Shown here: positions 1-4,689 of the stretch, one piece after another
Layout of the letters: every line of letters begins with the position of its first letter
Position numbering within the stretch: the first letter of the stretch is position 1
Origin: a virus
Taxonomy: Duplodnaviria; Heunggongvirae; Uroviricota; Caudoviricetes
Reading direction: 5' to 3' (one strand)
Length of the DNA: 4,689 bases
Virus record (IMG/VR): IMGVR_UViG_2648501400_000011
Location: 1-4,689 of that record
The notes under the pieces: model-generated
The model's database searches: none
The model's input: the letters and a program-made list of their open reading frames with translations, nothing else
Told to the model about the DNA's origin: nothing
Made by a program: the position numbers and the translations under genes

Positions 1-3000
1 ACGAACATATTACAAACTGTTGATTTTGGTACACCCAGGCGACGCCCGGCCACAACCCGGGGTAAATGTTCTTCAAAGTGAAGACGTAAAGCTTCAGTAG
101 ATCGCCTTCAATCTGGTTGGCGGACAGTTTTCCCAGAACCCGACAGTTTTCGTTAATCGTGACGTTGTTGAGCGTCCCGGAGTTCGCATTCACGTTACCG
201 CTGATATCGGCATTTTTCGCCGTCAGCCGCCCGTCCGGTGTCAGGGAAAATGCCGGAGGATTACCGCCACTGGTAATGGTGGGAGCCGTCAGGTATTTCA
301 GGAACACTTCGTTCATGAATATCTGATCGCCCTGACCAACAAACATCGGCTTTGTGTTGCCATTCGCAGGATTAATCATCGCAATCCGGTCAGCAGCCAG
401 AAGCACCTGACTCTGCATACCTGCTGGCGTATTCTCAATACCGGCTCCGATACCCGCAATATAAAGGCGTCCGTCCTTCATCTGCTGCAGTTTCACGGCC
501 CACATGCTGTTCAGGTTATTATTTGTATCAACCTGAACTTTCTGTATCTGCTGGATTGCCGCGCTCTGATTTTCCAGTTTTTTATTGACGGTCTGCGTGA
601 TTTCATTGCTGACATTCGTAATGGACGTCCTGATTTCAGCCAGATCAGGCGCAAGCTGACCGTTATCAATCTGCGTCCACAACTCCTGAGCCAGATGGGT
701 TTTCCCTATCTCTCCTTTGAAAAAATCCAGATAGCCGGATGCATCATCACTCGGCTGGCCAACAGCCTCCACAAATGCCGATTTGCCAACAGTATTCACA
801 CTGCGGATATAAAAATAATAATCATGGCCCGGTTTGATATTGATACTGGCAGCTATCCAGTACAGCGCCGAGCCAAGATAGCGGGCTGCGGTTTCAACCT
901 GCCTGATATCCGCAATCCGCTTTTCCGAGAACCAGAACTCAAACTGTACCGTCGGGTCATAAACGGCAAGATGCGGCGTGGCGGTTATCTGAAAATAGCC
1001 CTGCGTCAGCTCAATCCGCGACGGTGCTGCCGGTGCGGCAATCCGGAAGGTGGTGGTGGCAGGTTCACCCTGCTGGCCATAGCTGTTTATCGCCCGCACC
1101 GTCAGGGTGTATTCCCCGAGCGGCAGGCCGCTGAAACGGTGCTCCGTGTCTGCGGTGATGGCGGTGGTCACCAGTCTGGCATCCGTTCCCTTACCACTGG
1201 TCAGGCGCAGACTGAAGCGCACACCCTTCACCACCCGCGGCGTGTCCCATTTCGCCTGCGCCAGATACTGGCCGTCAGCTGCGCTCACCTCCACCGTCAG
1301 GTGCTGCACTGCCGGTGGGATGACGCTGTTCAGGGAACCTGACTGCGGCTCAAAGCGGGCACCGTTATCCACGATGGCTTCTTTTTCCGGTACGTGCTGC
1401 ACCGCCGTGATGGCAAAGGTGCCGTCCGTGTTTTCCCGGACGGAGACACAGCGGAACAGGCGACGGCGCAGTGACGGCAGGGAGAGTCCCCACACCCCGT
1501 ATGTCTCCACACCATCAGGCAGGGTACTGACCTGTATCCGGTCCGGCGCGGGGTGTTCGGTGATGTCCACACTCACCGGCTTACCGCTGCCGTTAATCAG
1601 GTTCACCGTGGCGGCACCGGTCTCCGGAAGTGTCACTTCACGGTCCAGCGTCAGGGTGCGGGTGGCAGCATCAATGGACAGGACACGTCCGCCGGTCAGG
1701 GTCCCGGCATAGTCGTTATCACAGATTTCAATGATGTCACCGGGTGTGTGCCGCAGCCCCTGAGACCCGAGCGTGAAATCCACCGTCTGCGTTTCCAGCA
1801 GTCCGGTCTTTATCACCCACAGTCCGGCACGGTGGGCCTGACCGCGGCTGGTACAGCCGAACGCGTCCATCTTCAGCAGGTTGCGTCCGTAGCGCAGTAT
1901 GGCTTCCGGGTCTTCCACCAGTTCCGTGGAGGTCTGCCAGCCGTTCTGCGGGTCGGTGTAATTCACCTCCACCGCCGTGTGCCGGTCCTTCAGGGCACTG
2001 AAGCTGTAGCGGAATCCCACGCCGTTATCATCCACCACCACATCGCTGTTGGTGTACGGCCACACCACATCCGACGGGCGGTCCTGAACGAACGTCAGCG
2101 TCTGACCGTTCCATACCGGCATACAGCGCATCGCAGAGCAGAAATCACTGAGAACGTCCCACGCCTTACGCTGTTGTGCCAGGTACGCATTAAAGGTCAT
2201 CCGCGGCTCTGTCCCCCCGAAACCATCCGGGACCGTCTGGTCGCAGTACTGCCCGATGGCATACAGCGCCCACTTGTCCACATCCGCCGCCCCCAGACGT
2301 TTTCCCATGCCGTAGCGCGGGTGAGTCAGCATGTCCCACAGGCACCAGGCCGGGTTGTTGCTGTATGCCGGTTTCAGACTGCCGTCCCAGATACCACTGT
2401 ACGTGCGTTTTTCCGGGTCATAGTTTGACGGCACCTGGATGATGCGACCGCGGATATGGTAGTTCACCGTCATCTGCTGGCCGCCGAACTGCTCCGCATC
2501 CACCTGCAGCCCCACAATGGCCGTGTTCGGGTAGCACTGTTTCACATCGATGATTTCGGTGTATGACGACCACAGCGTCTTATTCTGCAGCTGGTCCGTG
2601 GTGCTGTCCGCCGTCTCCCTGACCATCCGGATGTTAAAGGGCCGGGGAGGCAGATTATCCAGAATCACCGAGGCCAGGAACTGTGAGGTGGTCTTGCCGT
2701 TAATGGTGACGTCCTTTTCCGTCACCCAGCGGCCATTACGCTGTAACTGAATCAGAATCCGGACAGAGGAAGGATTACGGTCGCCCTTTGACGTGGTCTG
2801 CACCAGTGACTGCACCCCGAAGGTAACCCGCAGGCGGTCAATGTTCGCGGACGTAATGGTGCGCGTCACCGGTTTTGCCTTCGTCACTTCCACGCCCAGT
2901 CCGGTTTCAGCTCCGGAGGACTCAAAGCCTTCCGGTGGTGTCTGCTCCTGCTCCCCGGCGCGCCAGACCGCCGTCACACCGTGTATCACGGGATTACCGT

Positions 3001-3166
3001 CCGTGTCCGTCAGCGGGGTTTTGTTCACCAGAATACTCTGCAGGCCTTTCACCGGGCCTTCTATCGGTCCCTCACCAATCGCATCAATCACGCTCATCAT
3101 CTGCGTGGATTTGAGATTGTCTTTCGCCTCACGCGGTGTGTGCGCCTTGCCGCCACCTTTGCCCAT
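1..3166 (-). CDS. J: Tail tip host-specificity protein J (gpJ-like central tail fibre), partial: N-terminal 1055 codons, C-terminus lies beyond the left edge of the window
   Basis: Minus-strand ATG at 3164..3166, preceded by a Shine-Dalgarno AAGAGGTGA (plus coords 3171..3179) 4 nt upstream. The translation begins [52 protein letters not shown]... and continues in one frame to position 2 with no stop; the ORF track lists no complete minus-strand ORF here, consistent with an ORF truncated by the window edge. It matches lambda gpJ as I recall it over most of its length, e.g. [112 protein letters not shown]. Homology is from memory, not from a search. Confidence 0.95.
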
Positions 3167-3170
3167 TACA

Positions 3171-3179
3171 TCACCTCTT
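3171..3179 (-). promoter_or_regulatory. Ribosome-binding site (Shine-Dalgarno) of J
   Basis: Minus-strand sequence AAGAGGTGA followed by tgta and then the J ATG; strong complementarity to the 16S 3' end at suitable spacing. Confidence 0.6.
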
Positions 3180-3198
3180 ACCGTGATAATTGTTCACT

Positions 3199-3231
3199 CA
3201 CAAAAACAACAGGCACCTCACCGGGTGCCTG
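3199..3231 (-). terminator. Terminator-like hairpin plus U-rich tract on the minus strand, immediately upstream of the J RBS (possible attenuator or RNA-stability/processing structure)
   Basis: Plus-strand palindrome 3210..3217 (CAGGCACC) / 3224..3231 (GGTGCCTG) with a 6-nt loop; on the minus-strand RNA the 8-bp stem is followed by GUUGUUUUUGUG (plus coords 3209..3199). Lies between the I stop (3407) and the J SD (3171..3179). Confidence 0.35.
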
Positions 3232-3339
3232 CGTCATGACGGAATAAAATTTCTGAATATCTTCACATTTTCACACACTGACTGTGGCGCTTATAATTTC
3301 GCTGCGTTAGTGTTTTTTTGCCCGAGTAACAAAAACAAC
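3200..3339. repeat. Exact 11-bp direct repeat ACAAAAACAAC, two copies (3200..3210 and 3329..3339)
   Basis: Read directly from the sequence; flanking bases differ on both sides (c/a before, a/t after). Copy 1 forms the U-tract of the minus-strand hairpin; copy 2 lies inside the candidate sRNA. Confidence 0.6.
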
Positions 3340-3350
3340 TCCTTCACATT
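3261..3350. repeat. Exact 9-bp direct repeat CTTCACATT, two copies (3261..3269 and 3342..3350)
   Basis: Read directly from the sequence. Copy 1 overlaps the -35 region of the candidate promoter; copy 2 lies inside the candidate sRNA body, 2 nt after the second ACAAAAACAAC copy. Confidence 0.55.
3270..3297 (+). promoter_or_regulatory. Candidate sigma70-type promoter in the I-J spacer, directed opposite to the tail genes
   Basis: Plus strand: -35-like TTCACA (3270..3275, 5/6 match to TTGACA), 16-bp spacer, perfect -10 TATAAT (3292..3297). Predicted start around 3301..3306. Sits in an AT-rich spacer between two minus-strand genes. Confidence 0.35.
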
Positions 3351-3401
3351 GATCTTCATTTGTCTGTCCCCGCAGCTCCGCGATCACTGCGGGATTTTTT
3401 T
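3304..3401 (+). ncRNA. Candidate small RNA (about 95-100 nt) bounded by the plus-strand promoter and intrinsic terminator; function unknown
   Basis: The region between the predicted start (~3304) and the terminator T-run (3395..3401) has no credible ORF: the only listed plus-strand ORF (3190..3426) is TTG-initiated, lacks an SD and reads through the promoter and terminator. The transcript would contain an internal U7 tract (3313..3319), an (ARN)4-like tract AAC-AAA-AAC-AAC (3328..3339) and a 3' stem-loop plus U-tail, features typical of Hfq-associated sRNAs. Prediction only; no expression data. Confidence 0.3.
3369..3401 (+). terminator. Rho-independent terminator (plus-strand orientation)
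   Basis: Stem CCGCAGC (3369..3375) pairs with GCTGCGG (3387..3393), 7 bp and GC-rich, around an 11-nt loop; followed by A plus T7 (3394..3401). On the opposite strand the hairpin is followed by gacagacaaatg, not a U-tract, so it should terminate only plus-strand transcripts. Confidence 0.5.
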
Positions 3402-3406
3402 ATGTT

Positions 3407-4087
3407 TTATCCCTGTCGCCCGATAACCACGACCTTTCCGCCCCCGCCTTCATCACGGGTGCTGATGTACTGGGATATACGGCGGGAGCCAACCAGCATT
3501 TCCCCGTAAGGCACCGGCATCGGGTTCCCCTGGGCAATCATGTTATCCAGCGAGGAAAAGTACGTGTTCTGTCTGCCGTTATCCGTTGCGCGGTAATCCG
3601 GTGTTTTTGCCTTCGGGGCCAGCATCTGGGCCACACCGCCCAGAATCATGCTGGCTCCAAGTGAAAACAGCATCGTGGTGGCAGAAAAACCACCGGCTGC
3701 CAGGGCTGAACCCCATAACGCCATTGATGCCCCGGCAGTGAAGAAAGAGCCCACGATGGCTGCCGCCCCCAACACAATCTGCAGTCCACCCTTTCCGGCC
3801 CCGGCCAGTCGCGGCACAATGTGGATGACCGTTCCCTCACCCAGCTGTTCGTGAAGGCGGGCGTACACCACCTCCGGTGCCGTGTCTTCACCGGCAATAC
3901 GTATCTGGTACCAGCCTTCGTTCATCTGAAGGCGAAAGCCCGGCATCTGCATCGACAGGGCGCGAATGGCTTCCGCTGCCGTGTTCACATACAGGCTGAG
4001 GCGGCGGCCAAATCGTTGTAAATCCCCGTGAAGGCAGATGTGTGCCAGTGGCGGTGACGCCAGACAGAATGCGTTCGTCGTTGCCAT
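3407..4087 (-). CDS. I: Tail assembly protein I (gpI-like; ubiquitin-like N-terminal region and glycine/alanine-rich hydrophobic C-terminal region)
   Basis: Complete 226-aa ORF (ATG at 4085..4087, TAA at 3407..3409). The translation MATTNAFCLASPPLAHICLHGDLQRFGRR...QNTYFSSLDNM.AQGN...YGEM.VGSR closely parallels lambda gpI as I recall it (MAAT...ICLYGDLQRFGRR...). The C-terminal half carries a Gly/Ala-rich hydrophobic segment (GGLQIVLGAAAIVGSFFTAGASMALWGSALAAGGFSATTMLFSLGASMILGGVAQMLAP). A possible SD GGAGAGG (plus coords 4099..4105) lies 11 nt upstream, which is slightly long; the gene overlaps K, so translational coupling is plausible. Confidence 0.93.
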   Translation of the reverse strand: MATTNAFCLASPPLAHICLHGDLQRFGRRLSLYVNTAAEAIRALSMQMPGFRLQMNEGWYQIRIAGEDTAPEVVYARLHEQLGEGTVIHIVPRLAGAGKGGLQIVLGAAAIVGSFFTAGASMALWGSALAAGGFSATTMLFSLGASMILGGVAQMLAPKAKTPDYRATDNGRQNTYFSSLDNMIAQGNPMPVPYGEMLVGSRRISQYISTRDEGGGGKVVVIGRQG

Positions 4088-4626
4088 TTTTCGGAATACC
4101 TCTCCCGTTTACTCAGTTGTTCAGGAATATGGTGAAGCAGTTCACCGTTGCCGCAGTATATGGCGGCATGATTGGCCACCGATGCGCCAAAGCAGCACAG
4201 CAGGATATCGCCAGGCTGTGCGGAAGGCAGGGAAATCCTGTAAAAACCAGTCGCCTCCATATTGTCCAGGTACAGGTTCTGACCGTTGCGCCACCAGTCA
4301 TCCTCACGCTCAAAATCCGGCATATCAATTCCCGCCAGATGGTAGGCATCCCGGAACAGCGTGTAACAGTCCGTCACCCCGTGCTCAAAGCGCCGTCCTG
4401 TCAGATGTGGCACACAGCGGAATTTATGAATTTCCCCCCGGCAGACCAGCCACCAGGACAGTGCACTTTTTATCTGCAGCCGCCGGTCGGCCTCGCTCAG
4501 CCAGGGCAGACCACCGGGATGACTGTGGACCAGTGCCACAATCTCCCCCTGCATCTCTGCCCGCAGCCAGTCTTCCGGTGCAATACGAAAATACGTAAGC
4601 GTAAACTGACCGCCGTATGTAGCCAT
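3985..4626 (-). CDS. K: Tail assembly protein K (gpK-like; N-terminal JAMM/MPN metalloprotease-like motif plus C-terminal NlpC/P60 cysteine peptidase-like domain)
   Basis: Complete 213-aa ORF (ATG 4624..4626, TGA 3985..3987). The translation contains a JAMM-type motif H34-S-H36-x7-S44-x2-D47 (VHSHPGGLPWLSEAD) with an upstream Glu, followed by an NlpC/P60-like Cys in TDCYTLF (C87) and His residues in ANHAAIYCGNGELLHH (H153, H165/166). The 3' end overlaps the I gene by 103 nt out of frame, the same K/I arrangement I recall in lambda. No obvious SD; an in-frame TAA lies 18 nt upstream, so the start cannot be further 5'. Confidence 0.93.
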   Translation of the reverse strand: MATYGGQFTLTYFRIAPEDWLRAEMQGEIVALVHSHPGGLPWLSEADRRLQIKSALSWWLVCRGEIHKFRCVPHLTGRRFEHGVTDCYTLFRDAYHLAGIDMPDFEREDDWWRNGQNLYLDNMEATGFYRISLPSAQPGDILLCCFGASVANHAAIYCGNGELLHHIPEQLSKRERYSEKWQRRTHSVWRHRHWHTSAFTGIYNDLAAASACM

Positions 4627-4689
4627 CAGACGAGAATTGGTAACTTAGACGCCCATCTGATATAGACGGACATCTAAGTATGGAATTAC

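Follow-up and report, generated by a model that had tools for sequence, protein, structure and literature searches.

The question raised by this locus is what fills the gap between tail genes I and J in a stretch of 4,689 nucleotides from a virus of the Caudoviricetes (IMG/VR record IMGVR_UViG_2648501400_000011, positions 1 to 4,689; the whole stretch is called the window below). The spacer runs from the gene I stop to the J start (3167-3406, 240 bp) and is, as had been noticed from the letters, richer in AT than its flanks, with a GC content of 0.429 vs 0.579 for K and I and 0.574 for J. The original prediction proposed that a promoter and a terminator on the plus strand, opposite to the tail genes, give rise here to an independently transcribed, Hfq-type small RNA (sRNA). 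Our analysis identified this RNA as PasB, a published sRNA of enteropathogenic Escherichia coli (EPEC) with the identical sequence. It is very probable that 3270-3401 on the plus strand is the pasB gene, a promoter-sRNA-terminator cassette (moron) of lambdoid prophages that is transcribed against the late operon and whose RNA is bound by Hfq and acts in trans. The feature is already known, since PasB was described in 2021, and the sequence reading is a rediscovery. The features described from the letters were confirmed, and the proposal of an independently expressed, Hfq-binding RNA is supported; the suggested target mimicry is not.

The I-J spacer carries the gene of a published sRNA

The 83-nt sequence published for PasB matched positions 3319-3401 of the window exactly (plus strand, 100%; NC_011601.1 1466343 to 1466261). 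PasB (E2348CN_0006) was discovered by Pearl Mizrahi et al. (Sci Adv 2021; PMC8550237) by RNA sequencing (RNA-seq), northern blotting and RIL-seq, which ligates interacting RNAs and sequences them, and Table S6 of that study assigns it to prophage PP6 of EPEC E2348/69, between E2348C_1436 and E2348C_1437, on the minus strand of NC_011601.1. The whole spacer was 100% identical to that of E. coli O127:H6 E2348/69 (NC_011601.1 1466256-1466495, prophage PP6), and the open reading frames (ORFs) of the window and the E2348/69 annotation both placed PasB in the I-J spacer of a lambdoid prophage and in the orientation opposed to that of the tail genes. No difference was found between PasB of EPEC and the window RNA, the spacer, the flanking genes I and J, the strand and the terminator all being the same.

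The northern probe for PasB, AATCCCGCAGTGATCGCGGAGCT (PMC8550237 Table S6), mapped exactly to 3374-3396 on the minus strand and thus detects a plus-strand RNA. The published northern blots confirmed the size of PasB, showed that its stability is Hfq dependent and that its level is higher in the non-activating condition, and detected it in uninduced cultures (PMC8550237). For pasB, two DESeq2 sheets in Table S2, taken by us to compare hfq deletion with wild type under two growth conditions, give log2 fold changes of −6.8 and −2.4. The RIL-seq data (PMC8550237 Table S5) listed 37 unique PasB partners, including 30 in coding sequences (CDS) or 5' untranslated regions (UTRs), 4 in 3' UTRs or intergenic regions and 0 sRNAs. 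PasB was found in 258 chimeric fragments under the activating and 1,820 under the non-activating condition, occupied the RNA2 position, that of the sRNA, in 99-100% of chimeras, and had a U-tract of 7. These published experiments on the identical sequence show that the transcript exists and depends strongly on Hfq, and they establish its strand, size and Hfq-mediated partners.

The distribution of PasA to PasD was surveyed by Zhu, Shabalina and Storz (bioRxiv 2026), who reported 1,158 PasB hits, described PasB as embedded in the phage structural-gene operon and proposed a seed just upstream of the terminator. The discovery value of the present reading is small, PasB having been found experimentally in 2021 and its distribution surveyed in 2026. 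Sequence reading alone recovered a verified prophage sRNA gene, with the strand and the 3' end correct; the remaining value lies in the link to the EcOnc RNAs described below, the modular spacer, the predicted promoter with its invariant upstream block, and a holin-leader partner as a lead.

Predicted promoter, RNA body and terminator of pasB

The near-consensus promoter that had been proposed held up in a promoter scan. The predicted sigma-70 promoter (3270-3297, plus strand) consists of the −35 element TTCACA (3270-3275), a 16-nt spacer and the −10 element TATAAT (3292-3297), agrees with the consensus at 11 of 12 positions and was the top promoter site of the window. A promoter of such quality with a 16-nt spacer was expected 0.03 times per window and was seen in 5 of 200 shuffles. 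The −10 element places the predicted transcription start at about G3304. Across the aligned copies described below, the −10 element retained A2 and T6 in every variant (TATAAT, AATAAT or TATCAT), and CTGCGTTA around the predicted start was kept in all copies.

Upstream of the promoter, an A/T-rich block at 3241-3270 (plus strand, positions −63 to −34) was nearly invariant and was the best-conserved promoter-proximal stretch in all subfamilies. The block resembles an UP element, and it may stand in place of the −35 hexamer in the Sp15 and BP-4795 types. It includes TCTGA-N6-TCACA (3252-3267), which matches the CRP core at 9 of 10 positions and was expected 0.18 times per window, that is, not above chance; this dyad is centred at −44.5 vs −41.5, a non-canonical spacing. 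A role of the block as an UP element or a CRP site is predicted only. PasB is more abundant in lysogeny broth than in Dulbecco's modified Eagle's medium, an observation that, spacing apart, is compatible with CRP activation.

On the plus strand, 3304-3401 contains no ATG, as had been stated. The RNA elements named in the original prediction were likewise all found, namely an internal U7 run (3313-3319), an A-rich (ARN)4-5 tract (3325-3339, with AAC-AAA-AAC-AAC at 3328-3339; n = 5 if counted from 3325) and a U-tail. [quoted passage not shown] Class II Hfq sRNAs, which bind both the proximal and the distal face, are marked by an (ARN)n motif plus a U-rich 3' end; an (ARN)3-5 tract and a U6-7 tail persisted in every subfamily, whichever face PasB may contact. 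In single-sequence folds 3340-3368 was unpaired; this region holds the predicted single-stranded seed GAUCUUCAUUUGUCUGUC (3351-3368, plus strand), whose core AUCUU (3352-3356) is invariant in the aligned family. The intrinsic terminator (3369-3401), about 70 nt downstream of the promoter, comprises a 7-bp GC-rich stem (CCCGCAG, 3369-3375; CTGCGGG, 3387-3393) that closes a loop of 11 nt, and after it A and U7 (3395-3401). The terminator scan itself gave 3377-3393 plus a T-run, and folding together with comparison set the stem at 3369-3375/3387-3393. A transcript of about 100 nt from near 3304 to near 3400 had been predicted; its 3' end was borne out by the published RNA, which ends at this terminator, whereas the published 5' end is 3319, giving 83 nt.

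We infer the promoter, the contact between the ARN tract and Hfq, the seed position and the regulatory outcome, and propose the following course of events. In the lysogen, host RNA polymerase would most likely initiate at the TATAAT promoter, at about 3304, and transcription would end at the CCCGCAG/CTGCGGG-U7 terminator. Trimming of the RNA at the U7 run may account for the 5' end at 3319, as may imprecision of an end derived from coverage. The resulting RNA of about 83-98 nt would bind Hfq through its U-tail, and probably also through the (ARN)n tract, and would act in trans, 3351-3368 pairing imperfectly with core-genome mRNAs and with those of other mobile elements.

Several observations weigh against this reading. 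The window held 3 promoter-like sites with 2.4 expected by chance and 6 terminator-like sites with 4.1 expected; the −35 hexamer was kept only in the PasB-like subfamilies and not in the Sp15 and BP-4795 subfamilies, and the predicted start is 15 nt upstream of the published 5' end. The PasB publications (2021, 2026) yielded neither a promoter assay nor transcription-start mapping, and the text of Zhu et al. (2026) does not use the word "promoter". These authors call the function of PasB not elucidated, and the name PasB is missing from Table S7 of the 2021 study (PMC8550237), so no common target motif is listed for it. Homologues had been suggested as material for a covariance analysis; the terminator stem was conserved in all of them, but its pairs never varied, so the consensus structure, which consists of the terminator only, receives no covariation support. 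PasB has no Rfam family, and an Rfam scan of the whole window (E ≤ 1) gave nothing in the spacer and only two hits, chance matches resembling small nucleolar RNAs and both inside J. What is distinctive about this promoter-terminator pair is its quality, pairing and conservation, not the number of such sites.

PasB has homologues in enterohaemorrhagic E. coli

In enterohaemorrhagic E. coli (EHEC) Sakai, Hfq CRAC (cross-linking followed by cDNA analysis) revealed plus-strand peaks for EcOnc22 (Sp15, Stx1 phage), EcOnc23 (Sp14) and EcOnc24 (Sp11) (Tree et al., Mol Cell 2014; PMC4104026 Table S2). On northern blots these RNAs gave a band of about 85 nt and were destabilised without hfq (PMC4104026). 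We found that the coordinates of all three fall within 240-bp I-J spacers, antisense to the tail genes (NC_002695.2). The common EcOnc probe mapped to the plus strand of the Sakai spacers, in the body of the PasB-homologous RNA, with 3 small differences that may be errors of the PDF text. Old and new Sakai coordinates were shifted by about 134-142 nt at AsxR and stx2; if the same offset applies here, the CRAC peak spans the 3' two-thirds of the predicted Sakai RNA.

By its sequence, slot and strand, PasB is a diverged homologue of EcOnc22/23/24, with 65-69% identity. Sequence identity between PasB and the Sp15 copy was 69% across the 83 nt; counting only the body, which precedes the terminator, it was 52%. 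Table S6 of the 2021 study notes EHEC homologues for PasA and PasD and none for PasB (PMC8550237), and the string "EcOnc" is absent from the preprint of Zhu et al. (2026).

We aligned 10 copies, representing 7 distinct variants, from the window, O157:H7 EC4115, phage PhiR12_2, UID36, DA33135, an Stx2c phage, BP-4795 and Sakai Sp15, Sp14 and Sp11. The RNA body was only 52-57% identical among the variants, while the −10 element, U-run, ARN tract, AUCUU, stem and U-tail persisted. A U5-7 run and an ARN tract were present in every subfamily though the tract sequences differ, and the terminator stem was invariant in 8 diverged sequences around a loop of 10-16 nt and variable sequence. Such a fixed promoter and terminator with a variable body is the pattern expected of a family of trans-acting Hfq sRNAs with diverging seeds. 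A further Hfq-bound RNA of Sakai, EcOnc54 in prophage Sp6, was rejected as an I-J RNA because its position is in another insert, located between L and K and adjoining an antirepressor gene. That insert contains a divergent gene for a transcriptional regulator as well as the antirepressor gene, and the EcOnc54 Hfq peak is just upstream of the latter.

A holin leader of other prophages is the dominant PasB partner

The partners in the rows of the RIL-seq tables analysed here include ler, bfpB, ftsZ, galE, glk, gshA, hflX and E2348C_2648 (PMC8550237). Within the same rows, the top partner accounted for 774 of the 1,820 chimeric fragments in the non-activating condition and appeared in all three libraries (PMC8550237). 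The coordinates of this partner place it on the late strand, in the spacer that separates the SASA esterase and class II holin genes of prophage PP2 (NC_011601.1 743482-743611, plus strand), and a second partner is the equivalent region of a PP5 remnant (NC_011601.1 1290834-1290972). The two regions have an identical 69-nt segment in common.

Pairing was assessed by 18-nt window scans, with PasB taken as unstructured, against this segment and with shuffle controls; whole-RNA RNAduplex runs gave long implausible duplexes. The best duplex joined GAUCUUCAUUUGUCUGUC of PasB with UGACAGACAGUGACGGAUG (PP2 743509-743527; −17.2 kcal/mol, 16 bp), an energy reached by 5 of 300 target shuffles and 21 of 300 PasB shuffles. 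The predicted seed pairing with the PP2 site, which lies 186 nt upstream of the holin ATG, is suggestive. No copy of the site was found within 4 mismatches in PasB's own prophage, PP6. The esterase-holin spacer of Sakai Sp12 has a nearly identical site with one A>G change, from which no seed-target covariation can be read. These results raise the possibility, which we put forward tentatively and at low odds, that PasB is an inter-prophage regulator, a tail-region sRNA that tunes the lysis cassettes of co-resident lambdoid prophages, and that the I-J slot houses an RNA family (the PasB, EcOnc22-24, DA33135 and BP-4795 types) with a common promoter and terminator scaffold and diversified seeds.

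Flanking genes, slot occupancy and origin of the spacer

The genes on both sides of the spacer lie on the minus strand. The 5' part of J, the tail tip and host specificity gene, occupies 99..3166, with its ATG at 3166-3164, and the gene runs past the left window end; it was 99.8% identical to gpJ of E2348/69 prophage PP6. Tail assembly gene I occupies 3407..4087 (stop 3407-3409) in a lambda-like long form of 226 aa that overlaps the end of K, as I and K also overlap in lambda; the RefSeq call is a shorter form (3407-3988). Tail gene K (C40 peptidase) is partial at 3985..4595, and the final 94 nt of the window are without match to the E2348/69 K gene. From 99 to 4595 the window was 99.8% identical to PP6, with 10 mismatches, none of them in the spacer. 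Its ends (1-98 and 4596-4689) matched none of the complete E. coli genomes, and the unmatched end introduces an in-frame stop in K upstream of 4626.

In 1,106 of 5,426 complete E. coli genomes there was a match to the full spacer or to its right-hand 166 bp, and DNA like K-I-J was matched in 4,810 of the same set. There were also 147 phage records with the PasB spacer, the majority from Stx1- and Stx2-converting phages, and the I-J slot was retained across diverged subfamilies, including free phage genomes (BP-4795, Stx phages). The original prediction had described the RNA as a moron-like extra unit, had asked whether the spacer is variably occupied and had put the lambda I-J gap at about 60 bp; the spacer proved to be variably occupied among lambdoid phages, and the lambda figure was confirmed. 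In lambda, I ends at 15444 and J starts at 15505, which leaves a 60-bp gap without PasB. Elsewhere the spacer is longer, with 240-245 bp for copies of the window, UID36 and Sp15 types and 341-343 bp for those of the EC4115 and DA33135 types.

In the left third of the spacer, the late strand can form a hairpin with a U-rich run (3199-3232, minus strand; stem 3232-3224/3217-3209, U-run 3208-3199), 33 nt before the J start. Its predicted fold had an energy of −22.5 kcal/mol (z = −3.4). All 9 pairs were kept in 6 of 6 variants, and one pair changed from C-G through U-G to U-A, a wobble that fits the late strand only. A shuffle control on these 6 sequences was non-significant; shifting the partner columns cut pairing from 100% to at most 54%. 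The 60-bp gap of lambda largely consists of an analogous hairpin and U-run, AAACCGCCTGCGGGCGGTTTTGTCATTT. This likeness leads us to regard 3167-3240 as a probable ancestral I-J linker and the remainder, from about 3241 to 3406, as an inserted pasB cassette, which would have entered between the gene I stop and the ancestral hairpin with the ribosome-binding region of J.

The late-strand hairpin looks like an intra-operon terminator or stabiliser that is predicted to be read through by Q-modified polymerase, and no minus-strand promoter feeding it was seen by eye or in the promoter scan. The O157-type spacers (EC4115, DA33135) carry, left of the pasB promoter and in place of the simple hairpin, a perfect 18-bp bidirectional terminator, AAAGAAAACCCCGGTATC...GATACCGGGGTTTTCTTT (−34.6 kcal/mol, z = −7), together with about 100 bp of additional DNA that includes a 37-aa late-strand ORF.

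Alternative explanations

The original prediction had ventured that the C/A-rich tract could be a target mimic for the seed of a GU-rich host sRNA. In the form considered here, the tract (3325-3345) would stand in for the mRNA targets of GcvB, or of a similar sRNA, and so capture it, in the manner of the prophage RNAs AgvB and AsxR. EHEC prophages do have anti-sRNAs with ARN motifs (PMC4104026), and the tract CAAAAACAAC pairs with GcvB R1 (GUUGUGUUUG) at 9 of 10 positions. However, PasB has no sRNA among its RIL-seq partners, and the single sRNA-class partner of GcvB is explained by a gcvB::sroC chimera (PMC8550237). The energy of the PasB-GcvB duplex was equalled or beaten by 205 of 300 shuffles, a weak test in which the AgvB positive control gave 34 of 300, and the tract is conserved across the family in A-richness only, not in sequence. 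The known anti-sRNAs AgvB and AsxR, RNAs of 51-60 nt, are encoded at the PR' moron site and have a common 3' domain that is not in PasB, which also had no match to their Rfam models. The suggestion is not supported, and a sponge function is very unlikely. A second alternative is an action in cis: PasB is perfectly complementary to the intercistronic I-J part of the late mRNA over 83-98 nt; after induction, pairing could alter processing or J expression, or expose PasB to removal by RNase III, perhaps alongside a role in trans. The retention of the I-J slot in diverged subfamilies and in free phages would fit with this. Yet the RNA is plentiful in the absence of prophage induction, the partners recorded for it are encoded in trans, and it overlaps neither the J ribosome-binding site nor the I stop region, and we consider a cis-antisense role improbable, if still worth keeping in mind.

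The remaining alternatives concern the gene itself. The late strand contains a candidate 22-aa ORF, MKINVKELFLLLGQKNTNAAKL (3358..3290, minus strand), whose ATG is the complement of the conserved PasB core, and a candidate 19-aa ORF across the late-strand hairpin; a small protein encoded here might form half of a type I toxin-antitoxin system with the plus-strand RNA. The 22-aa ORF is preceded by a weak Shine-Dalgarno-like GGGGA, and its MKIN start is kept in the Sp15 (39 aa) and BP-4795 (31 aa) forms, where one 6-nt indel preserves the frame. Its ATG is, however, lost in 3 of 7 distinct variants (UID36, DA33135, Stx2c_JNE), neither its length nor its sequence past residue 8 is conserved, and in the window it ends at a stop codon formed by the complement of the −10 element. 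For the 19-aa ORF, no Shine-Dalgarno sequence is present, and conservation goes with the hairpin stem. The conserved small hydrophobic ORF with an antisense RNA that marks a type I toxin-antitoxin system was not found in the spacer. None of the small ORFs, on either strand, was accepted as a gene; the 22-aa ORF is probably not one, and we give the small-protein explanation only a few chances in a hundred. Finally, the 240 bp might hold no separate gene and be an untranslated linker of the late mRNA with chance matches to a promoter and a terminator, as the near-shuffle counts of such sites would allow. This is next to impossible to maintain, because northern blots, RNA-seq and RIL-seq show a plus-strand RNA from the exact sequence and from the EHEC homologues; lambda, moreover, gets by with its 60-bp gap. 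Expression of pasB from its own cassette, with action in trans through Hfq, remains the preferred reading.

Comparison with known systems

The moron concept reportedly goes back to Juhala et al. in 2000; lambda-type morons include lom and bor in lambda, and the classical ones encode proteins. Like lambda-type morons, pasB is extra late-operon DNA of lower GC content that is expressed from the prophage and has its own terminator and a predicted promoter of its own, and the corresponding junction in lambda is empty of PasB. Unlike the classical ones, its cargo is a non-coding RNA and is oriented against the late operon.

AgvB and AsxR (RF02702, RF02703) resemble PasB as short Hfq-binding RNAs of lambdoid prophages that are convergent to the late genes and carry ARN motifs (PMC4104026). 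They differ in lying downstream of PR' and a moron CDS, in their 42-nt common 3' domain and in sequestering GcvB or FnrS (PMC4104026). An AgvB/AsxR-type identity of PasB was rejected on its position in the I-J spacer rather than at PR' and on the lack of any RF02702 or RF02703 match at E ≤ 1.

EcOnc22/23/24 agree with PasB in the 240-bp I-J slot, the strand, the length of about 85 nt and the Hfq dependence, as well as in the upstream block, the −10 element, the U-run, the A-rich tract, AUCUU, the CCCGCAG/CTGCGGG stem and the U7 tail. They differ from PasB in the presumed seed next to the terminator (UCGUUCUCUCC vs UUUGUCUGUCC) and in an unlike −35 hexamer, and their target sets are probably different. 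EPEC PasB and EHEC EcOnc22/23/24 form one fixed-slot family. This link joins two literatures, brings Stx1 and Stx2 phages into the known range of PasB and shows the presumed seeds diverging on a conserved scaffold.

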